Source: Candidatus Kaiserbacteria bacterium
GTDB lineage: Bacteria > Patescibacteriota > Minisyncoccia > Phycocordibacterales > Phycocordibacteraceae
Length of the DNA: 64,000 bases
NCBI GenBank assembly: GCA_963699165.1
Contig: OY969413.1
Location: 852,562 to 916,561, forward strand
Direction: 5' to 3'
The notes beneath the pieces were generated by a model. That model did no database searches and had not been told where the DNA came from. It was given only the letters and a program-made list of their open reading frames with translations. Shown one piece after another: positions 31,741-55,031 of the stretch; the stretch's first letter is position 1; each line of letters starts with the position of its first letter. Position numbers and translations under genes: made by a program.

Positions 31741-32810
31741 TTCAGATACATTTGGCAGTCCTCATAACCGAGGATATATGCACATCAGAAGCAATTTCAG
31801 GGGTACGAAGGGCTGGTTGAGCATGTGGGAAAGGACGATACGATTGCGGCATATGCGGAAACCAAAGGAAGTCGACAGACGGGTGAAGATATTGGGATTC
31901 TGGGACATGCACGGGACGGAGGCCGCATACGACGCCTTTGGCACCTCGGAGCGCACCTTGTATCGCTGGAAGGAGGAACTCAAAGCCCACGAGGGCCGCA
32001 TTGATGCACTTGACCCGAAGAGCACTGCGCCGAAGGCGCGTCGAAGGAGGACTGTTCTGCCCGAGGTCGAGGATTTCATCATCCGCGAACGACAGGCGCA
32101 TCCCCGGCTTGGGAAAGCAAAGCTTGCCGTTCTCCTGCGCGAAGAAGGGTACTCCGTGTCGGAGTCATACGTTGGGCGGGTCATTCTGGATTTGAAGAAC
32201 CGCGGTCTGCTCCCGCAGCAGAGCCGGCTCTCGTTCCACGCACGTACGGGCAATCACACGGAAACACCGCAGAAACGCCGTACCAAGCTTCGCCGCACCG
32301 GCAAGCGCGGCATGGAGCTCGATACCGTCGTCCGCTTCATCGACGGCGTGAAGCGGTACGTCCTCACGGCAGTGGACGTGGAGCGGAAGTTCGCCTTTGC
32401 GGGCGCGTATACGAACCACTCGTCGAGAAGCGCGGACGACTTCCTTCGCCGAGTCATCGAGGTTTGCCCCTTCGATATCGACGAGTTGCAGACCGACAAC
32501 GGGAGCGAGTTCGCCAAACACTTCGAGGATGCCTGTGCCGAACTCGGGCTCACGCACTTTCACACCCGCCCCCGCACTCCCAAGATGAATGCCCACGTCG
32601 AACGATTCAATCGCACCGTCTCCGAGGACTTCATCATGCTGAATCGGGGCCTGCTGCGGGACGATATTCATTCCTTCAATCTGAAGCTTGTCGACTGGCT
32701 GATTTGGTACAACACCAAACGCCCGCACCAGTCGCTCGGCATGGTGTCCCCCTTGCGGTATATTGTGTGTACATTAACCGTCGGGGACTGCCAAAAGTAC
32801 TGGACGCGTA
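31741..32810 (+). mobile_element. IS481-family-like insertion sequence (about 1.06 kb), ends approximate
   Basis: Single DDE transposase ORF. Imperfect terminal inverted repeat ttCAGATACATTTGGCAGTCC (31741-31761) versus GGACTGCCAAAAGTACTGga (32785-32804). The ORF stop lies 17 nt beyond the IRR as aligned. No clear target-site duplication seen. Confidence 0.5.
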
Positions 32811-32821
32811 CAGGCTATTGA
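31778..32821 (+). CDS. DDE transposase, rve integrase-core (IS481-like)
   Basis: N-terminal HTH, rve catalytic core with D (TAVDVE), D (QTDNGSEF) and E (HVERFNRT; …HTRPRTPKMNAHVERFNRTV…). Confidence 0.75.
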   Translation: MHIRSNFRGTKGWLSMWERTIRLRHMRKPKEVDRRVKILGFWDMHGTEAAYDAFGTSERTLYRWKEELKAHEGRIDALDPKSTAPKARRRRTVLPEVEDFIIRERQAHPRLGKAKLAVLLREEGYSVSESYVGRVILDLKNRGLLPQQSRLSFHARTGNHTETPQKRRTKLRRTGKRGMELDTVVRFIDGVKRYVLTAVDVERKFAFAGAYTNHSSRSADDFLRRVIEVCPFDIDELQTDNGSEFAKHFEDACAELGLTHFHTRPRTPKMNAHVERFNRTVSEDFIMLNRGLLRDDIHSFNLKLVDWLIWYNTKRPHQSLGMVSPLRYIVCTLTVGDCQKYWTRTGY

Positions 32822-33639
32822 CGCATTTACGGCACTCGTCTATACTCCGTCCTACGTGTCTACGAACCGAAAGAACCAAGTGATTTTCGAAGCGGATAGG
32901 CCGTCATAGGCCCGCGCGTTACGTAAACGCGAAAGAACCGCTCGAGGCGGTTCTTTCGTTTCAAAGAGGCACTGTAATTTGACATACGAATATCATTGGT
33001 TGAACCGTCCTTAAAAAGACGGTTCATGTCCGCGACTTGTCGTGGACGAAAATCGAAGTTAGAACGTTAATGATTGTGGTATATAGGTCTCCGTACGAGA
33101 GACAATTAAGAGTGCACGGTGGATGCCTTGGCCTTGGACGGCTATGAAGGACGCGACTAACCTGCGAAAAGCTTCGGGGAGGCGGTTTGTAGCCTTTGAT
33201 CCGGAGATATCCGAATGGGGAAACCCTCCAGTTTTGAACTGGAATCCGCGGAGTAACGTCTGCGAGAAGCGAACCCGGGGAAGTGAAACATCTCAGTACC
33301 CGGAGGAAAAGAGAACAATATGAGTTGCGTTCCATTCAAGCGTATGTTCGTTTGAATGGAACGCGACTCGCGTGATACCCCAAGTAGCGGCGAGCGAAAA
33401 GGGAAAAGCCCAAACCTCTTTCTTCGGAAAGGGGGGTTGTAAGATGTGAACATCGTACTTGTACGAAAAGAGTTATCAATCGTCTGTATAACAGAAGCTG
33501 CTGGGAAGCAGCGCCCAAGAGGGTAATGGCCCCGTATGTGAAATGCATGACGACTCTTGTTCATATTCTTGAGTAGCTCGAGACACGAATAGCTCGAGTG
33601 AATCTGCCGGAACTAACCGGTAAGGCTAAATACGTCCAA

Positions 33640-33680
<41 letters not shown>

Positions 33681-35120
33681 CACCCCGAGAGGGGAGTGAA
33701 ATAGAACTGAACCCGTGTACTTACAAGGGGTCGGAGCGGATGCTTGCATCCGTGACGGCATGCCTATTGAAGAATGAGCCGGCGAGTGTGTGTATCTTGC
33801 TTAGCTAAGCCCTTCCGGGGCGGAGCTTAAGGGAAACCGAGCGTGAATAGCGCGTCTGTAGGATACATACGACCCGAAGCCAGATGAGCTTGCCATGAGC
33901 AGGGTGAAGTTTGTCGAAAGACAAATGGAGGCCCGAACCCGTAGGTCGTACAACGCCTTGGGATGACTTGTGGTAAGGAGTGAAAAGCTAATCGAATCTG
34001 GGAATAGCTGGTTCTCTCCGAAACAGCTTTTGGGCTGGCGTTGCAATAAGTGTACGTGGGGGTAGAGCACTGGAAGGGACCAACAGGGAGAAATCTCGTG
34101 GTTCCTATCAAACTCCGAATACCACGTGCCCGTGCAGCAGTTAGTAGGTGGGGGCGAAGCTCCATCGAACGAGAGGGGAAGAGCCCTGATCGCCACTTAA
34201 GGCCCCTAAATCGACATTCAGTACATCCACAAGGAAGTGAGGACTCATAAACAGTGAGGATGTTGGCTTAGAAGCAGCCACCATTTAAAGAAAGCGTAAC
34301 AGCTCACTCATCGAGAGTCCTTGCGCCGAAGATGATCGGGGTTAAATGTCGTGCCGAAATTGCGGGTTTGGTTTGTTCTGTATACAAACCAAGCGGTAGG
34401 AGAGCGTTCTGTTCGCTATGAAGCTAAAGGGATAACCCATGGTGGAGCGTACAGAAGTGAGAATGCCGGTACAAGTAACCACAATGCGGGTGAGAACCCC
34501 GCACGTCGAAAGACCAAGGTTTCCTCAGCTATGGTGATCAACTGAGGGTTAGTCGGGCCTAAGGGGATGGCGAGAGCCGCACCCGATGGACACACGGTCA
34601 ATATTCCGTGACCGTTTATAGAGGCAATGGAGTGACGGACTGCTGTATGTACTGCCGGTAATTGGATTCCGGTTGGCAGTGCGAGGGCGCGCGTTAGGTA
34701 AATCCGGCGCGCATTACCCCGAGCACTGACACAATTTTCTCCTTCGGGGGAAGAGAGAGTGCAAAGCGCGGTTTCAAGAAAACCTTCTACGCATCAACTC
34801 TATAGACGACCGTACCGCAAACCGACACAGGTGGTCAGGTCGAGAAGACCAAGACGAACGAGTAAGATGTCCTCAAGGAACTCGGCAAAAAAGCGGCCGT
34901 AAGTTAGCGATAAGGCCTGCCCTTCATCCGCAAGGATGGGGGGCCGCAGTGAAAGTTTTCCTGGCAACTGTTTACCAAAAACACAACTCCCTGCAAACTC
35001 GTAAGAGGAAGTATAGGGGGTGACACCTGACCAATGCCGGAAGGTCAACCACGGTGGGTATGCTGCTTCGGTAGTATGCTGGACTGTGTAAGCCCCGGTG
35101 AATGTCGGCGATAACTATAA

Positions 35121-35920
35121 TCGTGGACTCGCTACCACCTGCGCAAGCAGGTCATGAGTAGGGCGATTGTAAAATTCGGCCAAATGCTGGAACAACTGTC
35201 TCGAAAAGAGTTAGAGCATACGCTACCGTGTAGGTAACAATGCGTATGTGCAGTCAATCAGCAGGAAAGGCCGATGCAGGTATTGCCCACGCAAAATAAT
35301 AACTTGCGTATGGACAACACTACAAAAGAGCTCCTGAAACTTTTTCACGGCAAACGAGACGCTCTGCATTATTATGTTGCAGGTTTCGTTGACGGAGAAA
35401 GCAGTTTTAGTGTAGCGATTCTTAAAAATCCCTTCAAAAAAGAAGGGTGGCTGATTAATCCGTGTTTTCAGGTGTATCAACATCAGAATCACAGAGAAAT
35501 CTTGGAGTTATGCAAAGAAGTATTTAAGACCGGAAGAATATATCGCAAAAGCGGTACACATCCCGTCCTAAACTTCAGTATTGACTCAATACGGAATCTA
35601 AAAGAGAAGGTAGTACCTTTCTTCGATAGATATCCGCTCATAACAAAACGCGAATCGTATCAAAAATTCCGGGACATTGTAGTATCAATGGACAGGAAAG
35701 AGCACTTGACCTCTAAAGGGTTTGAGCGTTTGGTACGGCTTGCGTACAGTATGAATCAGCAGGGCAAAGGTCGCAGGAGAACTCTTGAAGAGGTTCTTGC
35801 GACTCAGCCCAAACCTGCATCGGAATCCTCAGAGACTTTACGCCGAACTCACGCTTAGTGGGCAGTGAGATGATAAAGTCCAATCCTCATGGCGACATGA
35901 GGGGCTTCGAGAAATCGAAA
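35121..35920 (+). mobile_element. group I intron in 23S (E. coli position about 1917 region) with LAGLIDADG ORF
   Basis: 23S exon …aactataa | … | cctaaggtagcg…; the E. coli sequence AACTATAACGGTCCTAAGGTAGCG is interrupted by about 800 nt containing ORF 35274..35858. Confidence 0.7.
35274..35858 (+). CDS. LAGLIDADG homing endonuclease (intron-encoded)
   Basis: LHYYVAGFVDGESSFSVAI (LAGLIDADG motif) plus a second half-motif; lower GC than the host; inside the 23S. Confidence 0.8.
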   Translation: MQVLPTQNNNLRMDNTTKELLKLFHGKRDALHYYVAGFVDGESSFSVAILKNPFKKEGWLINPCFQVYQHQNHREILELCKEVFKTGRIYRKSGTHPVLNFSIDSIRNLKEKVVPFFDRYPLITKRESYQKFRDIVVSMDRKEHLTSKGFERLVRLAYSMNQQGKGRRRTLEEVLATQPKPASESSETLRRTHA

Positions 35921-36588
35921 TGCCTAAGGTAGCGTAATTCCTTGTCGGGTAAATTCCGACGTGCACGAATGGTGTAATGACTGGGAAACTGTCTCGAGGA
36001 CTCGCTCGGTGAAAATGCACTTCCGGTGAAGATGCCGGATACCTGTAGTTAGACGAAAAGACCCCAGGAGCTTTACTACAGCTTCGTATTGGCCCTGCGG
36101 GATACATGCGTAGCATAGATGGGAGACATTGAAGCATTCCTTTCGGGGGATGTGGAGTCGTCAGTGAAATACCATTCTTGTATCTTGCAGTGTCTAACCC
36201 CGTTGGGATCCAACGGGGGACCGTGCGTGGCAGGTAGTTTTGGTGGGGCGCTATCCTCCTAAAAAGTAACGGAGGAGTCTATTAAGGTTCTCTAGGCGCG
36301 AATGGAAACCGTGCCGATAGTGTAATGGCATAAGAGAGCTTAACTGCGAGGGGTACTTCCCGAGCAGATGCGAAAGCAGAGCATAGTGAACCGATGGTAC
36401 GCCTTAGATGCGGCCAGAGATTAACGGATATAAGTTACCCTGGGGATAACAGGCTAGTTCCGCCCAAGCGTCCTTAGCGACGGCGGAGTTCGGCACCTCG
36501 ATGTCGGCTCACCATAGCGCGGGGCTGGAGAAGGTCCCAAGCGTTTGGCTGTTCGCCAATTAAAATGGTACGCGAGCTGGGTTCAGAC

Positions 36589-36995
36589 CGTTCAGCAACT
36601 AACAAGAGTTGGTGATTGAACGGTCTGAATCCACGAGGCAATTGTTAGGTGCGTGGAGACGCACTATGCGTCCCGGTAGAGACAAGAACCTCACCAAGGT
36701 TCTGGCTCGCTAAAGCGAGCGTCTCTAACGGGATGCGAAAGACATACTCACGGCGGTCCCGAATAGGAATATTCGGGAAGCAAATCAACTGATATCGGTG
36801 AAATCCAATCTCATTGTGTATGAGAGGACAACACCGAGGGAATTCTTTGCAATCGCAAAGAGACCCGTAGAGACTGAATGTTGATGCTCCAGGCTAAAAC
36901 AATCTCGAAGAGATTGTTCGCCCGAACTTTTGCAACGCAAAAGTTTTAGGGAGTAAGTTACAGTCCGATCCTCCGAGTAATCGGAGTTAACTAGA
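36589..36995 (+). mobile_element. ORF-less group I intron in 23S (position about 2593, I-CreI-type site region)
   Basis: Conserved 23S GGGTTTAGAACGTCGTGAGACAG is split: gggttcaga | about 407 nt | (t)gcgtgagacagg. No ORF. Contains a CCCGTT-palindromic element copy (36671-36733). Confidence 0.6.
36671..36733. repeat. CCCGTT-palindromic element copy inside 23S intron (arms TCCCGGTAGAGACA / GTCTCTAACGGGA + TG)
   Basis: 13-14 bp arms nearly identical to copy 1 (5022-5102), in the same orientation, ending ...aacgggATG. Interior forms two short hairpins (agaacc…ggttct; gctcgc taaa gcgagc). Confidence 0.5.
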
Positions 36996-37050
36996 TGCGT
37001 GAGACAGGTTGGTCTCCTATCTACTACAGGCGTTGATTCTTGAGGAGGGT

Positions 37051-37849
37051 TGTCCCTAGTAAGAAATTGCTACTTCAGAGAGAGATCTCTGATGACAACA
37101 TGGCTTATAACGGTGGAGTCTAATGTGCTTCCGGTTTTAGAGTTTCATATCCCGCGGTCCTGTGGATATTTAACTCGCTTGAGGACCAGAATGCTACTAT
37201 GATAATACCGTGGGAAGTCGACCAAATAAAGTTGCAGATTATGCGTATATTGCGGGCTTCTTGGATGGAGATGGCAGTCTCATGCTCCAAGTAAAGAAAC
37301 GCAATGATTCGACCAAGGGAGTGCGCTTCATGGCGACAATATGTCTGTATCAAGACAGTCGCCACGATGTGCCACTCTCATGGATTCGAACGCGGCTCAA
37401 GTGCGGATACGTTTCTAAACGAAACGATAGTATGACGGAATTGCGCATCAACGGTTTCTCGCAGGTGCGAGAAACTCTAGAGATGCTTCAGCCGTATCTT
37501 CGTTTCAAAAAGAAACAAGCAAGACTCTTGATTCAGGCATGCAAAATGCTCGAGCGAGACACGCTTCGCACTATGAAGCCGAAAAATATACGCAAGATTG
37601 TCGATCTCTTGTTGCTCATACAAAATGAAAACTATATGAGCAAGAGACGAAAGACAAAAGAAGAACTGCATCAGATACTTGGTTTGACCCCGTAACGACT
37701 TAGGTTGAAAGATACCTAGACTCATAGGTTGAGGAATCATTTCTCAGAGAATGACTGCTCCTATGGGTAAGATGCCATCATCCTAACCCCGAATAGCGGA
37801 GAAGGATGAAGATATAGTCTGCGCTCCTGGAAACAGGGGAACGAAGCGA
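37051..37849 (+). mobile_element. group I intron in 23S (between CCTAGTA and CGAGAGGACC, about position 2650s) with LAGLIDADG ORF
   Basis: Conserved CCTAGTACGAGAGGACCGG is split (…gtccctagta | about 800 nt | cgagaggaccgg…). Contains ORF 37210..37695. Confidence 0.7.
37210..37695 (+). CDS. LAGLIDADG homing endonuclease (intron-encoded)
   Basis: YAYIAGFLDGDGSLMLQV motif; 161 aa (single-motif size). Confidence 0.8.
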   Translation: MGSRPNKVADYAYIAGFLDGDGSLMLQVKKRNDSTKGVRFMATICLYQDSRHDVPLSWIRTRLKCGYVSKRNDSMTELRINGFSQVRETLEMLQPYLRFKKKQARLLIQACKMLERDTLRTMKPKNIRKIVDLLLLIQNENYMSKRRKTKEELHQILGLTP

Positions 37850-38219
37850 CGAGAGGACCGGGATGAACTGACCTCTGGTCTACCAGCTGTCCTGCCAAGG
37901 GCACCGCTGGGTAGCTATGTCGGGTTGCGATAACCGCTGAAAGCATATAAGCGGGAAACGTGCTCCAAGATTAGGAATCGTTATGAGACACCTCGGAGAT
38001 GACGAGGTTGATAGGCTCTAGATGGAAGCGCCGCAAGGCGTGGAGTCGAGGAGTACTAATATGTCCAGTCTCTCGTGCGGAACTCTGTATATCAGTCATT
38101 CGTTCGCACTCGGGCGAACGGTTTGCAAAACAAACCGTTGTAGCCGCTTTGTTTTTCAATACCAATGATTTATCGTAGCGTCGAACATGTAAGTGTTCGG
38201 TTCCAATTGTGTGCTTTGT

Positions 38220-38334
38220 GCTGGTGCTTTGGCGGTGGGGTCATACCCGATCTCATTCCGAACTCGGCAGTCAAGCCCGCTAGCGCCGATGGTACTCATC
38301 GTTACAGATGGGGAGAGTAGGTAGGCGCCAGCAC
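38220..38334 (+). rRNA. rrf: 5S rRNA
   Basis: gctggtgctttggcggtggggtcatacccgatctcattccgaactcggcagtcaagcccgctagcgccgatggtactc…gcgccagcac: closing helix 1 and conserved loop C/E motifs. Lies about 130 nt after the 23S 3' end. Confidence 0.85.
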
Positions 38335-38403
38335 AAAGCACGCAATGAGCGGAATCGAATATGTAAACAAAATAACCGCGTTATGCGCGGTTATTTTGTT
38401 ACA

Positions 38404-38922
38404 ATGACCGCTATGCTCACGGAGGGGAATCTCAAATATCTTCAAACAATATCTGACGTCGATATTGTTCACGTTGCGCCATTTGACCCGGGTACTCAAA
38501 AGACGGCTGCAAGCATTATGTCTCAAGTTCGGCAGGCCATACCAACGGCAAAGATATTTTATTTTGGTTCATCCGCACTGGGCATCGCAGGAGAAAACGA
38601 TATCGATCTTGGTGTTATTGATGCCGGCGAATACGGGTCCTGTGGAAGGATGTTGCAAGGCATCTTTGGAGAACCGATAAAAGTTGATGAGAAGCAAAAC
38701 ACAATCAGGTGGGAATTTGTGCGGTCTGGATTTACCATTGAACTGTTTCTTTCTGATGTTTTGGCCGGAAGAATCCTGGAGCACATTAATACTCATGAGC
38801 GTTTGGTGACGGACGAAAATCTGCGGAACGCGTACGAAAAGTTAAAACAAGCAGCCGACGGATTGTCGAAACGCGAGTATATGAAGCGCAAACTTGAATT
38901 TTTTAATACGCTTGCACTATAA
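38404..38922 (+). CDS. nucleotidyltransferase-fold protein (GrpB / minimal NTase-like)
   Basis: GSSALGIAGENDIDLGV (G[SG]…D.D NTase motif) plus a C-terminal helical part. Start chosen at 38404 to avoid overlap with the 5S. Confidence 0.45.
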   Translation: MTAMLTEGNLKYLQTISDVDIVHVAPFDPGTQKTAASIMSQVRQAIPTAKIFYFGSSALGIAGENDIDLGVIDAGEYGSCGRMLQGIFGEPIKVDEKQNTIRWEFVRSGFTIELFLSDVLAGRILEHINTHERLVTDENLRNAYEKLKQAADGLSKREYMKRKLEFFNTLAL

Positions 38923-49039: not shown

Positions 49040-50100
49040 TGGCACCCAAACCCCTCAATTCGAACGACGGTTTTTTGCGCTCCTCTGAGCGCGTTGTTTC
49101 TTTTCCGCAGCATACGCCTCATCTGGCGTGAGTGAACCGAGCACATCCATGAAGCGGCGATTCATCTTTGCTTCGAGTTTCTGCACAAATCTTTTTGAAT
49201 ACTTTGAAATATCCGAGCTTTTCGGGATGTACCGCCGCAAGTCCTTGTTCAGATTCTCGATTGATGGCTTCTCCCATGGCGCATGCACATGACAGAAATA
49301 TATCTTCACCCCAAGCACCTTCTCTAGCCGTTTGTGTTCGAGAAAGAGAATATCGTTGTCGAATGTGATGGTCTGCATCTCGGGATACCGCTTTTTCATT
49401 CTGCGAAGCGCTCGCTCCACGTTTCGCACTGACACTGGCAGGATCCGCTCCAGCAGGTTTTTGCGCACCCTGCGATCCCGCAGACCAAGAATGATGCCTT
49501 GACCGCTCTTGCCCGACACGATGAAGTCGCCCTCCATGTGACCCAATCCCCATCGCTTGTTGATTTTGCTCGGTCGTTTGTCGATCAGGCGCTTGTCGGC
49601 AATGTGTGGTTTCGATGGCCGAGAGCGTCGCCTCTTCTTGAATACCTTTGCTCGATGCGACTCGATCCGTCTGCCATACGGGCTCTTGATATATCGGCGT
49701 ATAGCCGAGGATGAAGCATATCCGATATCCTTCTCGATCCGCTTCAATCGAAGTGAGATGTTTTCGGGCGACTGATCGTCGAAGAGATGCGCCTCGATGA
49801 ACTTCCGGAGCTTCGGGTCGAGAGCAATCATCTTGCCGACCGCTCGGCTGTATTTCCTTCGTACGTATGAAATGTGATGCGCATATGCAGCATCATACGG
49901 CCGTCCCTTCCTCTTCTTTTGCGTCTCGTACCATATGACACTCTTCGGTCGGTCGAGTGCATCTCCGACATCTTGCAAAGAGTATCCCTTCGCTAACAGT
50001 ATCTGTATTTCGTCTCGTTCGGACCTTGTGAAGTGCGCACCGCCGGAGGTTTTTTCATTCGCTCAATGTATCAAACGTTCGAATTCAAAAGACTAGTCGC
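49040..50100 (-). mobile_element. IS30-family-like insertion sequence (boundaries approximate)
   Basis: IS30-type transposase flanked by the short inverted core cAATTCGAACG (49056-49066) / CGTTCGAATTc (50076-50086). Longer IRs could not be defined by eye. Confidence 0.4.
49055..49978 (-). CDS. IS30-family DDE transposase; N-terminal HTH continues upstream (to about 50062) without an in-frame ATG, likely frameshifted
   Basis: GHMEGDFIVS…, FDNDILFLEHK…, …PWEKPSIENLNKDLRRYIPKSSDI match the IS30 D-D-E core. Upstream in-frame peptide …HFTRSERDEIQILLAKGYSLQDVGDALDRPKSV is the IS30 HTH. The nearest ATG (50058-50056) is in the +1 frame, just before an A6 run. Confidence 0.65.
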   Translation of the reverse strand: MQDVGDALDRPKSVIWYETQKKRKGRPYDAAYAHHISYVRRKYSRAVGKMIALDPKLRKFIEAHLFDDQSPENISLRLKRIEKDIGYASSSAIRRYIKSPYGRRIESHRAKVFKKRRRSRPSKPHIADKRLIDKRPSKINKRWGLGHMEGDFIVSGKSGQGIILGLRDRRVRKNLLERILPVSVRNVERALRRMKKRYPEMQTITFDNDILFLEHKRLEKVLGVKIYFCHVHAPWEKPSIENLNKDLRRYIPKSSDISKYSKRFVQKLEAKMNRRFMDVLGSLTPDEAYAAEKKQRAQRSAKNRRSN

Positions 50101-50424: not shown

Positions 50425-50978
50425 TATACCGTCTTCCGTCAGAAGACCCCTTGCCGGGCCTTCTCGGCGGGGCGGTTTTCTGATTTTTTGGGGCAAGTTC
50501 CCCCGCACATTTAAAGGCCGCTCCGGCTATTGACTTGCTTTGGCCGTTCATATAGTATGCATCTACTGCCTCGAAAGAGGCGGGATTTCTTTTGCTCTAG
50601 TTCGTTGACATTCTAAATACGTGTTAATTCCCGCGACGCGCAGCGTCGCGGGAGAAAGATGTGTGAATTCTTTTGTTCCGCCTATTCTTATTGAGAGTTT
50701 GATCCTAGCTCAGGGTGAATGCTGGCGGCGTGGATAAGTCATGCAAGTCAAGGGGGCCCGCAAGGGCAACCGGCAGACGAGGTAGTAACACGTAGGTACG
50801 TCCCCCGAAGTCGGGCATAGCCATCCGAAAGGATGGGTAATTCCCGATAGTCCCGCAAGGGTAAAGGTTTTTCGCTTCGGGAGCGGCCTGCGTAGTATCA
50901 GCTAGTTGGTAGGGTAACGGCCTACCAAGGCTACGACGCTTAGGGGAGCTGAGAGGCTGACCCCCACCGATGGGACTG

Positions 50979-51678
50979 CGATAAAAGTTGTCGCCTTGGG
51001 GAGTAATCCCCAATGATTAATCTTGCTCATAACGGTGAAGCCTGACTGATGGGTGTATAATAATACCCATCAAAGGTAATACCGTGGGAAGTCGACACTA
51101 TCTTTCAGACGCATATTTGGCAGGATTCTTGGACGGAGACGGCTCTGTTGTGGCAACGCTTGAGCGATACCACAGCAAGCGGTTTCCGTATCGTGTGCGC
51201 ATCAAGGTGAATTTCACCCAACATGCAAAACACAAAGATAAACTGGCACTAATGCAAGAGGCGCTCGGCGGTTATGGAGTTATCCGAACCAATGCGCGCA
51301 AAAATCTTGCGGAGCTGGTAATCCAAGAACGAAATCAAGTACAAGCGGTGCTCGCGCGTCTCGTGCCATTTCTTCTAATAAAAAAAGACCAGGCAATTCT
51401 GGCTCTTGAAGTATTAGAGAAAATGAGCTCCAACGAGAAGCATAAACCGAGCACGTTGTCTGAAAGAGCGTATATTCGTATTCTGTCAGTAGTACAGAAA
51501 ATTCGTCGTTTGAATTCCCATACGGGAGGCAAACGCGAGATACGAGTGTTTGACCCCGTAACGACTGAATTTCCGGAGCAACCCGGAATGAAGACGGAAT
51601 CTTCGGATTCTGTAAGACGCAAGCCCCTCGCACGAACGAGGGTGAAAGTATAGTCTGTGCCATAAGAAATTATGGAAT
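50979..51678 (+). mobile_element. group I intron in 16S (after ...GGGACTG, E. coli position about 320s) with LAGLIDADG ORF
   Basis: Conserved …ACTGAGACACGG…CTCCTACGGGAGGCAGCAG is split: …gggactg | about 700 nt | aacgacggcccatactcctacgggaggctgcag. Confidence 0.65.
51084..51653 (+). CDS. LAGLIDADG homing endonuclease (intron-encoded)
   Basis: AYLAGFLDGDGSVVATL motif; 189 aa. Confidence 0.8.
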   Translation: MGSRHYLSDAYLAGFLDGDGSVVATLERYHSKRFPYRVRIKVNFTQHAKHKDKLALMQEALGGYGVIRTNARKNLAELVIQERNQVQAVLARLVPFLLIKKDQAILALEVLEKMSSNEKHKPSTLSERAYIRILSVVQKIRRLNSHTGGKREIRVFDPVTTEFPEQPGMKTESSDSVRRKPLARTRVKV

Positions 51679-52109
51679 AAACGACGGCCCATACTCCTAC
51701 GGGAGGCTGCAGACGAGAATATTCCGCAATGGACGAAAGTCTGACGGAGCGACGCCGCGTGATGGATGAAGTGCTTTGGTACGTAAACATCTTTTACCGG
51801 GGAAGAAATTATTGACGGTACCCGGTGAATAAGGGGCTCCTAACTCTGTGCCAGCAGGAGCGGTAATACAGAGGCCCCAAGCATTACCCGGAATCATTGG
51901 GCGTAAAGGGTGTCTAGGCGGCCATATTAGTCTCTCGTTAAATCCGCGGGCTCAACCTGCGGCATGCGAGGGAAACGGTATGGCTCGAGGGCGTAAGAGG
52001 TGCACGGAACTCATGGTGGAGGGGTGAAATCCGTTGATATCATGGGGAACACCGAAAGCGAAGGCAGTGCACTGGTACGTTCCTGACGCTCAAACACGAA
52101 AGCCAGGGT

Positions 52110-52143
<34 letters not shown>

Positions 52144-52727
52144 CCTCAACGTTGCTCGCTCGTTTTACGGAGTATCGACCCTCTGTGAGACTAAGCTAAC
52201 GCGGTAAGCGAGCCGCCTGGGTAGTACGATCGCAAGATTAAAACTCAAAGGAATAGACGGGGACTCGCACAAGTGGTGGATTATGCGGCTTAATTCGTCG
52301 ATAAACGAAGAACCTTACCAAGGTTAGAAATCCAGCTGCATCCAACTCGAAAGAGATGGAGCCTTCGAGGGTGCTGGACAGGTGATGCATGGTCGTCGTC
52401 AGTTCGTGGTTTGAACTGTTCCCTTCAGTGGGGTAACGAACGCAACCCCCGTTGTCTGTTGCCTATATGGTCAGGCGAGACTGCTCCCTCACGGGAGAGG
52501 AAGGTGGGGATGACGCCAGATCAGCATGTCCCTCTGATACCTTGGGCTGCACGCATAATACAATGGTCGGTACAACGGGTTGCAATGCCGTAAGGCGGAG
52601 CCAATCCTTATAAAACCGACCCCAGTACGGATTGAGGTCTGCAACCGACCTCATGAAGCCGGAATCACTAGTAATCCCGGGTCAGCCAAACCGGGGTGAA
52701 TACGTTCTCGAGTCTTGTACTCGGGTC

Positions 52728-53710
52728 GCCATGCGATCCGAGCATCTAGTTGGTGACTCTTGGAATAGAGAAGTCCAACCGCGCCGTGGCGGCGTGAAGC
52801 GAAATCGCAGTGTCGATACCGCGAGGTATGGCATGAAGGGTGAAAGTAGCAGTGTGTAGCGTGAACGCTAGTTTGTGGCGCCTAGAGTGGGAGATCCCGC
52901 GAGTACAGGGAGAATCCAGCCACACCAAAAGCTCTAGGCGTGTAGTGGCGTCGCGATACATATACACAGATGTTCGGGTTACCGTGGGAGATCTGTTATG
53001 TTCCTCGTGGTAAACTAACCTCGAGGTATGCGGATGAGCAATCATCGTAAATGACATGACAGAAGTCAGCAGAGGTCGTAGTACCGCCGTATGAAAGGTA
53101 AACGCAATACGCGTCTGCTTGAACCGGTAGGGAAGGACCGAATTCGTAGGAAGCCGCTCGACGGAGCATATGTTGCCGGATTTATCGACGGGGAAGGTTC
53201 CTTTTCCGTCAGTATCGGCAAACACGCGACTCTATCGCGCGGACTTGAAGTGCGTCCTGAATTTGAAATTGAAGTGCGTGCGGATGATCGAGAAATTCTT
53301 GAGCGAATTCTCGTTACTGTCGGCTGCGGAAGAATCTATGACTGCTCGTATGAGCGGTACGGATGGTATCCGCATGTCAAATACAAAGTGACGAGCACGC
53401 GCGAGATGGAGGAGATTCTCTTCCCGTTTCTCGATAACAATCCGCTCCAAGCGAAGAAAGCGGAATCGTATCTTCTCTTTAAAGAGATTGTGCTTTCGTA
53501 TCGGCGCAAGGAGCATCTCACCGATGCCGGTTTCAACAACATTCTCGAAACGCGCAATCGATTGCGAGCTCTCGGAAAGAAGGCTAAAACATTTCAGTTA
53601 TGAAATGTTCGCCCAATGAAGAGCTCGCACCTACGGAAACCGCTAGGGTGCAGGAAAGCTGCTTGCCCAGTGGTGTTTGTGAGAGTGGTAGTAATATCAC
53701 AAAACGCAAG
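52728..53710 (+). mobile_element. group I intron in 16S (within CTTGTAC|ACACCGCCCGTCA, position about 1400) with LAGLIDADG ORF
   Basis: …gaatacgttctcgagtcttgtac | about 980 nt | (at)accgcccgtcaagtcaagg…. Confidence 0.65.
53091..53603 (+). CDS. LAGLIDADG homing endonuclease (intron-encoded)
   Basis: AYVAGFIDGEGSFSVSI motif; 170 aa. Confidence 0.8.
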   Translation: MKGKRNTRLLEPVGKDRIRRKPLDGAYVAGFIDGEGSFSVSIGKHATLSRGLEVRPEFEIEVRADDREILERILVTVGCGRIYDCSYERYGWYPHVKYKVTSTREMEEILFPFLDNNPLQAKKAESYLLFKEIVLSYRRKEHLTDAGFNNILETRNRLRALGKKAKTFQL

Positions 53711-54051
53711 ATACCGCCCGTCAAGTCAAGGGAGCTGGGGGTGCCCGAAGGTCTGCCTTGCGCAGGACTACGGCAAATTCAGTGACAAGGACTAAGTCGT
53801 AACAAGGCACGGGTAGCGGAAGCTGTTCGTGGAACATATCCAAATTGGAACCGATATCGCCCGAAAGGCATATCATGTCGATACGATTCGCAAGAATCGT
53901 GAGAGATAGTACTCGTCTCTAAACGGTACTCGGAAGCCGGATAACGTAACCCGGTGGTCCTTCACACGAGAAAGCATCGCGGAGCTTCGCTTCGCATGTG
54001 TATACAATGCTTTCTCGTGTGTGGGGGAACAGAATAGGCGGAACAAAAGAG

Positions 54052-54101
54052 CGCACACAAACACAAATAAGCCCCTGCGGGCTTATTTGTGTTTGTGTGC
54101 G
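54052..54101. terminator. perfect 21-bp-stem hairpin (bidirectional terminator candidate) downstream of 16S
   Basis: cgcacacaaacacaaataagccc ctgc gggcttatttgtgtttgtgtgcg; preceded by a second inverted repeat (cacacgagaaagca…tgctttctcgtgtg, 53964-54024). Confidence 0.5.
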
Positions 54102-54290
54102 AGGTGGAGCGATGTTCGGCTAGCAAGCCGAACCGCGAGCCGGGGTCGCGCAAATTCGCGAGTGGCGACGAGCGAATTATGCGTGACCACACATCTTTCA
54201 ATAGCATCACAAAAACACCCGAGATGGGTGTTTTTGTATTCAGTCGGGATATTAGAAACCCATTTCTTCAGCGCGTTTTCTTGCTTCTGG

Positions 54291-54767
54291 TTACAGGGAA
54301 TCTCTTATGGAATGAGGTCCCCTCAGCAATGTTTGTAGCGCCTCCAGCCCGGGATTGCCGTCGACTTTGCGTGTTGATAATTTTACCGTCAAATACAACC
54401 TCGCCCTTTCGCGCATCCCCGGAGTTAGTGTTCCTGCGAGAGAGGTCGATTCGTCGCTCGAAAAATAAGAAACCCCTTTGGCAAGAGCTAACACGAAGAC
54501 ATCAAAGTCCTCTCCGACTATCGTTAAAAGATTCCGCCTTCCGCGAGCGTCATCAATTCCAACATCAAGCGATTCGACTTTGTCCAAAAAAGCTTTCGCT
54601 TCCTTCTCGGCATTGAATGTCTCGTGATGTTCGATATGTGTGGCTGGTGGGACTGTTGCCGCGGATACCTCGGGTTTGTCGACCGCTCCCGAAAGAGCTG
54701 CCGCCAGCGCAACGACTTGGCCGATTTTTTCTAGGTGATTGATTTTTGGTTTTCCCGGGCCTTCCAT
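54291..54767 (-). CDS. hypothetical protein (158 aa)
   Basis: ORF with host-like codon usage starting MEGPGKPKINHLEKIGQVVALAAALSGAV…; no recognisable domain. Lies between the 16S and tRNA-Ile on the opposite strand. Confidence 0.35.
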   Translation of the reverse strand: MEGPGKPKINHLEKIGQVVALAAALSGAVDKPEVSAATVPPATHIEHHETFNAEKEAKAFLDKVESLDVGIDDARGRRNLLTIVGEDFDVFVLALAKGVSYFSSDESTSLAGTLTPGMRERARLYLTVKLSTRKVDGNPGLEALQTLLRGPHSIRDSL

Positions 54768-55031
54768 AATTAATATTGAAATTGTACTACAAACATGCGA
54801 ATCCGTTTTGGATGTTCTAGACAATTTTAGGCGGTGAGTTTTGCAACACAGCGGCGCCAGATACGCGCCTTATTTTTATGCCTGCGCAATTTTTCCTCAA
54901 GAGTAGATATCCGCACCGTGCGGATTCGTTTCGATTCACGGGGTCGTGGACCTCGGAACATCTTGCCCTTAGTATAGCAGGCGAGAGTGGAAGGGAAGTG
55001 GAATATCTGGTACTATCCAAAAGTTCCAACT

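Follow-up and report, generated by a model that had tools for sequence, protein, structure and literature searches.

What interrupts the 23S ribosomal RNA (rRNA) gene of this Candidatus Kaiserbacteria bacterium, and can the interruptions be expected to leave its transcript? The gene lies in a 64,000-nt stretch of contig OY969413.1 (hereafter the window; all coordinates are positions in it, and the 23S gene with its parts lies on the forward strand). An earlier note on this DNA, made from the sequence alone, had proposed three group I introns in the gene, two of them encoding LAGLIDADG endonucleases. Our comparison with homologous sequences indicates that a Kaiserbacteria-like member of the candidate phyla radiation (CPR) has its 23S rRNA gene interrupted by three inserts that are very probably mobile group I introns. 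All three have the structural hallmarks of the group: a U at the end of the 5' exon facing a G of the guide in P1, a terminal G in the intron, and covarying P3–P9 cores with the P3/P7 pseudoknot. The group I identity originally proposed for them thus holds.

With its introns, the 23S rRNA gene extends from 33096 to 38075, as delimited by the Rfam LSU_rRNA_bacteria match, alignment to Escherichia coli rrlH and BLAST of the exons; the 3' end is approximate. Its exons occupy 33096–35124, 35923–36591, 36998–37060 (63 nt) and 37849 to ∼ 38075. Intron 1 (35125–35922, 798 nt) follows U1923 in helix 69 and ends in G35922, intron 2 (36592–36997, 406 nt, without an open reading frame, ORF) follows U2593 and ends in G36997, and intron 3 (37061–37848, 788 nt) follows U2656 in the sarcin-ricin loop and ends in G37848 (E. 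coli numbering is used for rRNA positions throughout). The lengths given previously (800, 407 and 799 nt) need correcting accordingly. The introns have G+C contents of 44.6, 47.3 and 44.9%, respectively, as against ∼ 51–54% in the exons and 53.6% in the whole window, so that they are indeed, as had been remarked, poorer in G+C than their host. The 5S gene follows at 38220–38333 and the 16S gene lies further 3' (Rfam).

The inserts were recognized by reading positions 32500–38800 and by alignment to rrlH. In a naive global alignment, inserts 1 and 3 were broken up into a number of spurious gaps, and the junctions were therefore set from the empty sites of relatives. The relatives' contigs (designated here by L numbers) were retrieved via homologues of both intron ORFs and by scans of genomes and metagenomes with junction or core motifs, and empty alleles were identified by searching these loci with the spliced exons (BLAST), followed by direct inspection. 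The spliced 23S exons are 92% identical to those of relatives; over the main 5' exon block, identity to contigs L002–L007 is 85–92% (92% in L002–L005). Site 1 is empty in L002–L007, which read AATCGT/CCTAAGGT (a slash marks a junction), site 2 in L008, L011 and L012 (ACCGT/CGTGAGACAG), and site 3 in L011 and L012 (CCTAGT/ACGAGAGG). The window itself has AACTATAATCGT/intron/CCTAAGG at site 1 and GGGTTCAGACCGT/intron/CGTGAGACAG at site 2. The predicted ligated RNA junctions are AAUCGU/CCUAAGG, ACCGU/CGUGAG (that is, ACCGU/CGUGAGACAG) and CCUAGU/ACGAGAGG, and at all three sites the empty-site relatives match the predicted ligated exons exactly. The third junction has a 1-nt ambiguity (A); we prefer cleavage after U2656 and before A2657, with the intron ending in G, because of the exon-U/intron-G rule.

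The inserts thus interrupt conserved 23S blocks at the places named by the earlier note, as sequence reading, the E. coli alignment and the empty sites agree. Its positions ∼ 2593 and ∼ 2650s (U2656) stand, whereas ∼ 1917 gives way to U1923, the site fixed by the empty alleles of L002–L007. The flanks that it quoted are E. coli-like consensus strings and should not be taken literally: for AACTATAA/CGGTCC, for example, the host has TCGT in place of CGGT. Helix 69 of the host reads GGCGA...TCGTC, a compensated stem in which TCGT replaces CGGT, and intron 1 follows the T. The closest 23S and endonuclease relatives bear the names Kaiserbacteria, Minisyncoccota or Paceibacterota; by this kinship the host is a CPR bacterium (Kaiserbacteria-like), in keeping with the genome type suggested before.

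Searches with the Rfam group I model, recommended earlier as a check, were of limited help. At the gathering threshold, Rfam detected no intron and a permissive search was needed. That search, covering 35000–38000, gave one Intron_gpI (RF00028) match inside each insert and none elsewhere, with 33.7 bits (E = 3.6e-6) for intron 2, 28.5 bits (E = 1.3e-4) for intron 3 and 20.8 bits (E = 0.026) for intron 1. The expected matches are therefore present, all below the gathering score of 50 bits, and group I classification required comparative analysis because the matches were sub-threshold. We read only those in introns 1 and 3 as partial 3'-core alignments, and we take the model to be weak for these subgroups. 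The same permissive search found no group II match in 35000–38000; a similar search finds one in the 16S gene, at 53027–53138. The homologues used for comparison were extracted with no condition on the terminal base, and the exon-terminal U proved to be universal in all three intron families.

The core is best documented for intron 2. A genome scan yielded 80 distinct introns at U2593, all of which end in G. In the window, the internal guide sequence CACG/GCGGU (36749–36757) lies directly upstream of P2 and is the reverse complement of ACCGU/CGUG with a single A-to-G change. Its GCGGU (36753–36757) pairs with the 5' exon ACCGU to form P1, with the wobble U2593·G36753 at the splice site, and its CACG pairs with the 3' exon CGUG as P10. 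CACG/GCGG(U/C) is found in 71 of the 80 introns (79 of 80 including close variants), at 57–275 nt from the 5' splice site. The remaining helices were assigned as P2 (36760–36775), P3 (36784–36789 with 36880–36885), P4 (36795–36800 with 36832–36837), P5 (36804–36806 with 36826–36828), P6 (36838–36840 with 36864–36866), P7 (36872–36876 with 36961–36965), P8 (36886–36890 with 36950–36954) and P9 (36972–36976 with 36981–36985).

This structure was tested on a 41-sequence alignment (A1), using the RNAalifold consensus plus P7. The guide hardly varies, if at all, every cell of the P10-like helix is paired (100%), and covariation is seen in each of P2–P9, which follow one another in the canonical order and include the P3/P7 pseudoknot. 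Paired cells make up 95.8% of the total, and compensatory changes were counted at 42 pairs. None of 500 shuffles reaches the observed value on any of five measures, and slid partners are paired in 28–40%. The introns 2 of the window and of L002 also have an extra branched insertion of ∼ 64 nt (36671–36734 in the window); it sits in the variable region between the 5' hairpin described below and the guide, and family members of 255–300 nt do without it.

Intron 1 has a guide of the same design. The sequence UAGG/GCGAUU (35159–35168) is the reverse complement of the ligated junction AAUCGU/CCUA with one A-to-G change; GCGAUU pairs with the 5' exon AAUCGU (35119–35124) as P1, with a U·G wobble at the splice site, and UAGG pairs with the 3' exon CCUA (35923–35926) as P10, adjacent to P1 as in the textbook arrangement. 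Homologues at U1923 were found in L010, L011, L017, L037, L047, L181 and L185. Over the eight sequences compared, P1 is 100% and P10 91% paired (cells), the terminal G is present in 8/8, compensatory changes occur in P3, P8, P9 and an 11-bp P6 (10 of its 11 pairs), and P7 swaps U-A to A-U. The intron lacks P2; its P4, assigned by eye, is UGCUG with CAGCA and is invariant. This register replaced an initial one that was 50% paired, and a stem of UCGGCC with GGCCGA was dropped in favour of P3 (UUCGGC with GCCGAA) and the 11-bp P6, which covary instead. One homologue, that of L185, is an ORF-less derivative of 494 nt that keeps the ribozyme core. Contigs L002–L007, which lack the U1923 intron, carry an insert after U1931, directly 3' of AATCGTCCTAAGGT (e.g. 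4498–4688 in L002). It measures ∼ 190 nt in L002–L005 and 571 nt in L006 and is part of ∼ 1150 nt in L007; 190 nt cannot accommodate a complete group I core.

For intron 3, 54 distinct introns were found at U2656, all of which (54/54) follow a T and end in G; helix statistics refer to 45 of these sequences with the ORF removed. P1 is the hairpin UAGU/AA GAAA UUGCUA (37057–37062 with 37067–37072), in which UAGU pairs with GCUA around a GAAA loop; it is 99% paired and has the U·G in 45/45. The map continues with P2 (37075–37081 with 37086–37092), P3 (37100–37104 with 37774–37778), P4 (37110–37115 with 37206–37211), P6 (37215–37220 with 37696–37701, enclosing the ORF), P7 (37718–37722 with 37816–37820), P7.1 (37723–37728 with 37760–37765), P8 (37779–37783 with 37804–37808) and P9 (37824–37829 with 37834–37839). 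There are four to seven compensated pairs in each of P2, P3, P7.1, P8 and P9; P4 is invariant and 100% paired, and P6 and P7 are ∼ 90% paired. The P7.1 hairpin points to an IA-like subgroup. A pairing of GGUCC with GGACC (92% paired) was kept out of the map, as it crosses another helix, and apparent 17-nt inserts at site 3 in L031 and L108 turned out to be matches of the search pattern within P9 of a full intron.

ORF-less derivatives with the ribozyme core occur at U2656 as well (L078, L100, L172, L219 and L240; 292–426 nt), and their presence at both U2656 and U1923 is as expected from a cycle of endonuclease gain and loss. The core motif of intron 3, AATACCGTGGGAAGTC, is also found at 99 metagenome loci (L144–L263) outside U2656 introns, at times twice per contig; this lineage has therefore spread to several rRNA sites.

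The U2593 family has a second element at the 5' splice site. The segment UUGAACGGUCUGAAUC (36616–36631) can pair across the splice site with the last 12 exon bases (36580–36591) and the first four intron bases (36592–36595), forming a hairpin of up to 16 bp; in the family this segment, near the intron 5' end, has the consensus UUGAACNGUYUGAAYC. At exon position 2588 the base is G or A, and its partner in the hairpin changes with it: there are 44 G-C, 32 A-U, seven G·U and no A·C pairs over 83 loci (25 G-C and 16 A-U in alignment A1). Within the hairpin, U2593 lies opposite an A in 40 of the 41 sequences, because of which it cannot be the catalytic P1. It had been tried as P1 and was set aside on account of this non-canonical U-A at the splice site, its place being taken by the invariant guide CACGGCGGU directly upstream of P2. 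We read the hairpin as an alternative or an extending helix: there would be room for its distal 8 bp alongside the real P1, with which its proximal part competes. It is possible, though we lean against it, that the family reads its 5' exon in two parts, one by the guide and one by the covarying segment. Selection might then have made the hairpin a folding switch, hiding the splice site for as long as the ribozyme core is not yet complete; or else it might clamp the freed 5' exon in the second splicing step. We met no description of such a hairpin in the group I literature, which we did not search thoroughly, and it is the only feature of this locus that may be undescribed.

Introns 1 and 3 each contain a gene for a single-motif LAGLIDADG_1 protein, as predicted, with the motifs VAGFVDGESSF and IAGFLDGDGSL, respectively. 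ORF1 (35274–35858) has 194 aa (amino acids) as listed; its start is likely the ATG at 35310, which gives 182 aa, because the homologues have 181–185 aa. ORF3 (37210–37695) encodes 161 aa from a GTG start and is of the I-CreI/I-CvuI/I-MsoI type. Both score above the Pfam cut-off for LAGLIDADG_1 (PF00961; 72.0 and 41.2 bits, cut-off 23.1), with one matched stretch each, and have homologues in the Protein Data Bank down to E = 5e-40 and 3e-22, respectively. The comparison with I-CreI/I-CeuI-family enzymes suggested earlier bore out the expected kinship in sequence and in predicted fold, ORF1 matching I-CeuI and I-TnaI and ORF3 I-CreI and I-CvuI. By sequence, the best solved relatives of ORF1 are single domains of I-LtrWI, I-SmaMI and I-OnuI, followed by I-TnaI, I-CeuI and I-Vdi141I; its AlphaFold2 model (predicted local distance difference test score, pLDDT, 87.5) has Foldseek template-modelling (TM) scores, normalized to the query, of 0.71–0.74 to I-TnaI, I-CeuI and I-Vdi141I. 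ORF3 resembles I-MsoI, I-CvuI and I-CreI by sequence, and its model (pLDDT 89.7) has TM scores of 0.85–0.86 to I-CvuI and 0.83 to I-CreI. Both predicted models have the alpha-beta-beta-alpha-beta-beta-alpha core fold.

The motifs are undisrupted. The acids D28 and E30 of ORF1 (GFVDGE) are invariant in 28 homologues and D19 and D21 of ORF3 (GFLDGDG) in 30; the motif acids were equated with D20 of I-CreI via alignment. Ratios of nonsynonymous to synonymous substitutions (dN/dS) relative to relatives are 0.10–0.12 for ORF1 and 0.09–0.15 for ORF3. To judge from these data, ORF1 and ORF3 are intact LAGLIDADG_1 endonuclease genes under purifying selection whose products are predicted to cleave DNA. 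ORF1 has 337 homologues in public data, including one identical protein (P0121) on other contigs, and ORF3 has more than 2000, the nearest being 88–90% identical; named homologues of the two come from Kaiserbacteria, Vogelbacteria, Kerfeldbacteria or Minisyncoccota. Coding and ribozyme sequences overlap in both introns. ORF1 starts in the 5' strand of P6 (35271–35281) and crosses its 3' strand (35813–35823), P7 (35834–35838), P3' (35842–35847) and P8 (35848–35869), while the GTG of ORF3 lies inside the conserved 3' strand of P4 and its stop codon just before the 3' strand of P6. Since ORF3 is located in a sarcin-ricin-loop intron, it must recognize a target other than that of I-CreI; this would presumably be close to GTCCCTAGT/ACGAGAGGAC, a partial palindrome.

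Splicing would proceed in the usual manner for such elements. Each transcribed intron would fold into a group I ribozyme core whose guide pairs with the end of the upstream exon via the U·G wobble; external guanosine would attack the 5' splice site, and the freed exon would attack the bond after the terminal G of the intron. Helix 69, the region around helix 93 and the sarcin-ricin loop would thereby be restored precisely. The structural features seen here are the prerequisites of splicing, and it is from them that we infer catalysis. To judge from their single-domain length and from I-ShaI, the ORF1 and ORF3 endonucleases would act as homodimers that cut the intron-less allele near the insertion site, after which repair would copy the intron in; homology, intact catalytic residues, purifying selection and the analogy with I-CeuI, I-CreI and I-ShaI all argue for such homing. 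Intron 2, having no ORF, might persist by vertical descent, by means of an enzyme acting in trans, or by co-conversion with intron 3, which lies 63 nt downstream. The last is only a suggestion, because many genomes hold intron 2 without intron 3 (the intron 3 site is empty in 44 of the 70 loci in which both flanks are available).

Several points weigh against regarding the inserts as functional, mobile group I introns. Every Intron_gpI score is below the gathering score, the comparison for intron 1 comprises only eight distinct sequences, and one P7 position of intron 3 is non-canonical (G/G) in six of the 45 sequences. The P1 of intron 3 has only 6 bp, and helix analysis and inspection found no P10 in this intron; many group I introns are without one. 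The 5' splice site of intron 2 can be locked in the competing 16-bp hairpin, from which it follows that efficient splicing may need a conformational switch or the help of a protein, and the evidence as a whole fits self-splicing and protein-assisted splicing alike. The low scores, the short P1 without P10, the exon-covarying hairpin and the overlap of ORFs with core helices in introns 1 and 3 would also suit inserts that derive from group I introns, no longer splice by themselves and require LAGLIDADG maturases or host factors, supplied in trans in the case of intron 2; LAGLIDADG proteins elsewhere can double as maturases (PMC11270868). We regard such dependence as rather unlikely, given that the core helices, guides and terminal G are conserved and covary as a working ribozyme requires, and that the persistence of ORF-less derivatives in all three families speaks against strict dependence on a protein encoded in cis.

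That the inserts are not spliced at all, being either expansion segments retained in the 23S rRNA or intervening sequences excised by RNase III to leave a fragmented rRNA, is very improbable. Bacteria do have such intervening sequences, and CPR 23S genes bear short unclassified inserts (PMC11270868); the host 23S gene itself has extra hairpins at 33318–33370 and 33416–33475. Group I cores with covariation, guides that match the ligated exons and the terminal G nevertheless tell against retention or RNase III excision, and 400–800 nt of additional RNA, or a break, in helix 69, by the peptidyl-transferase centre or in the sarcin-ricin loop would be expected to disable the ribosome. The known intervening sequences of bacterial 23S rRNA are simple extended stem-loops without a ribozyme core that replace the tips of helix 9, 25 or 45, whereas the inserts here sit in helix 69, around helix 93 and in the sarcin-ricin loop. 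It is likewise hard to credit that the arrangement is a metagenomic chimera joining intron-bearing fragments of different organisms. The genome was probably assembled from a metagenome, rRNA operons are difficult to assemble and close relatives differ in the introns that they carry; yet assemblies from ENA, NCBI and JGI (L002–L007) share the exon-intron architecture at U2593 and U2656 with exons that are 92–96% identical, the ORF1 protein is found unchanged on other contigs (P0121), and the exon flanks run on without a break and make up a complete 23S gene. Mobile group I introns thus remain our preferred interpretation of the three inserts.

How do these introns relate to known ones? Position L1923 is what we take to be the number of the I-CeuI site (the Ce.LSU.5 intron of the Chlamydomonas chloroplast 23S gene). 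Intron 1 shares with Ce.LSU.5 and I-CeuI the insertion point in helix 69 and a single-motif LAGLIDADG protein, the ORF1 model having a TM score of 0.73 and 29% identity to I-CeuI. Cleavage by I-CeuI produces a CTAA overhang (PMC2790883), and these four bases are contained in CCTAAGG, the beginning of the 3' exon at site 1. Differences from I-CeuI are the bacterial host and the fact that ORF1 is nearer to I-OnuI, I-SmaMI and I-LtrWI in sequence and to I-TnaI in structure. Intron 2 occupies the I-CreI site (L2593, the Cr.LSU intron) and ORF3 falls in the I-CreI/I-CvuI/I-MsoI structural group (TM 0.83–0.86), but the two are swapped relative to Cr.LSU, the L2593 intron here being ORF-less and the I-CreI-like enzyme residing in the sarcin-ricin-loop intron instead. 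The description of all three as classic homing sites therefore applies to sites 1 (I-CeuI) and 2 (I-CreI) and not to site 3, a hot spot known only from CPR bacteria (PMC11270868). Literature searches on sarcin-ricin-loop group I introns and on 'L1923' yielded nothing.

Clusters of group I introns are known from other bacterial 23S genes. Coxiella burnetii has one such intron at L1917. The other is at L1951 (PMC1995217), and the two are reported to surround a 34-bp exon (Raghavan et al., 2007, as cited in PMC11270868); introns 2 and 3 here similarly flank a very short exon (63 nt, 36998–37060). One of the Coxiella introns lacks the terminal G, which all three introns here possess. In Synechococcus sp. 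C9, group I introns with LAGLIDADG genes interrupt the 23S gene at three sites, L1917, L1931 and L2593 (Haugen et al., 2007; PMC1995217). Its number of introns is the same as here, and the layout of its L1917 intron, with an ORF running from P6 through P7, P3 and P8 and no P2, is that of intron 1 (PMC1995217). The present gene differs in its sites at 1923 and 2656, in having one ORF-less intron and in its host clade. Unlike the cyanobacterial L2593 introns, intron 2 is without P7.1/P7.2 (PMC1995217).

The closest parallel lies within the CPR itself. In a survey of hundreds of CPR rRNA genes, 82% of the 23S genes had inserts (Tsurumaki et al., 2024; PMC11270868), 45% of the 23S inserts were called group I by Rfam at E ≤ 1e-5, and LAGLIDADG_1 ORFs were concentrated at 1917, 1931, 1952, 2593, 2604 and 2657 (PMC11270868). 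Several hot spots, including 23IS14, which by the order of positions in that study is 2657, have not been reported from other bacteria (PMC11270868). Cleavage has been demonstrated for I-ShaI, a related enzyme of a CPR bacterium (PMC11270868), and for the removal of such inserts from CPR transcripts that study refers to Brown et al. (2015; as cited in PMC11270868). I-ShaI belongs to 23IS7, by the same ordering position 1931, which is none of the three sites here. Our case agrees with the surveyed set in host clade, in the 23S hot spots 1917/2593/2657, in single-domain LAGLIDADG_1 proteins and in the presence of more than one intron to a gene, with a concentration towards its 3' half. Their first site is given as 1917, whereas the exact junction here is U1923, a difference explained by the derivation of their positions from E. 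coli alignment; a naive alignment of our sequence to E. coli puts the site 1 gap at 1919–1923. Under their Rfam criterion, only intron 2 would be classed as group I (E-values from the 3-kb search).

The 16S gene (gene region 50690–54900) is also interrupted twice, which makes the five introns formerly counted in this rRNA set plausible. The first insert (∼ 50963–51683, at E. coli ∼ 310–328) contains an ORF (51084–51653) for a 189-aa LAGLIDADG protein that is 32% identical to ORF3, and shares the motifs AAUACCGUGGGAAGUC (at 51078), CCGUAACGACU and GAAAGUAUAGUCU with intron 3. It is an intron of the same RNA family, and a single intron lineage therefore occupies two rRNA sites in this genome, with endonucleases that have diverged. 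The second insert follows E. coli position 1395, in the stretch from 52721 to ∼ 54900. It has a group-II-D1D4-1 match at 53027–53138 (47.3 bits; gathering score, 35) and an ORF (53091–53603) for a 170-aa LAGLIDADG protein with YVAGFIDGEGSF. It matches the LAGLIDADG-encoding group II-like insert described at position 1400 of CPR 16S genes (PMC11270868).

Domain I of the 23S rRNA has two extra segments of ∼ 50–60 nt, at 33318–33370 and 33416–33475, in the vicinity of E. coli 227 and 274. Of these, the first folds into a long, nearly perfect hairpin (GCGUUCCAUUCAA...UUGAAUGGAACGC); in appearance both are expansion segments or hairpins of the intervening-sequence type rather than introns. The 16S gene is not linked to the 23S–5S genes, which precede it by ∼ 12.6 kb; immediately upstream of 23S (32500–32800) is coding sequence of a transposase or integrase-like kind, and a 307-aa ORF on the reverse strand (49055–49978) lies just upstream of 16S. 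The Rfam LSU match spans 33096–36677, claims the full model and stops inside intron 2, and the SSU match (51498–52752) begins inside the 16S intron ORF; these boundaries are wrong because of the introns. Automatic annotation would consequently mis-call the 23S and 16S genes of this genome, and analyses based on either must first remove the introns.

As to the enzymes, the idea that they are candidate programmable meganucleases is generic speculation. ORF1 and ORF3 are natural single-domain scaffolds with predicted new targets, the TCGT variant of helix 69 and the sarcin-ricin loop; their engineering value is modest because thousands of close homologues are already public. The three introns are an ordinary, already catalogued feature of CPR genomes, and the current biological picture of rRNA introns in these bacteria is unchanged. 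The junction, guide and helix maps show that inserts in CPR rRNA genes that score below the Rfam cut-off can be real group I introns, for which reason the published group I share of 45% is probably an underestimate.

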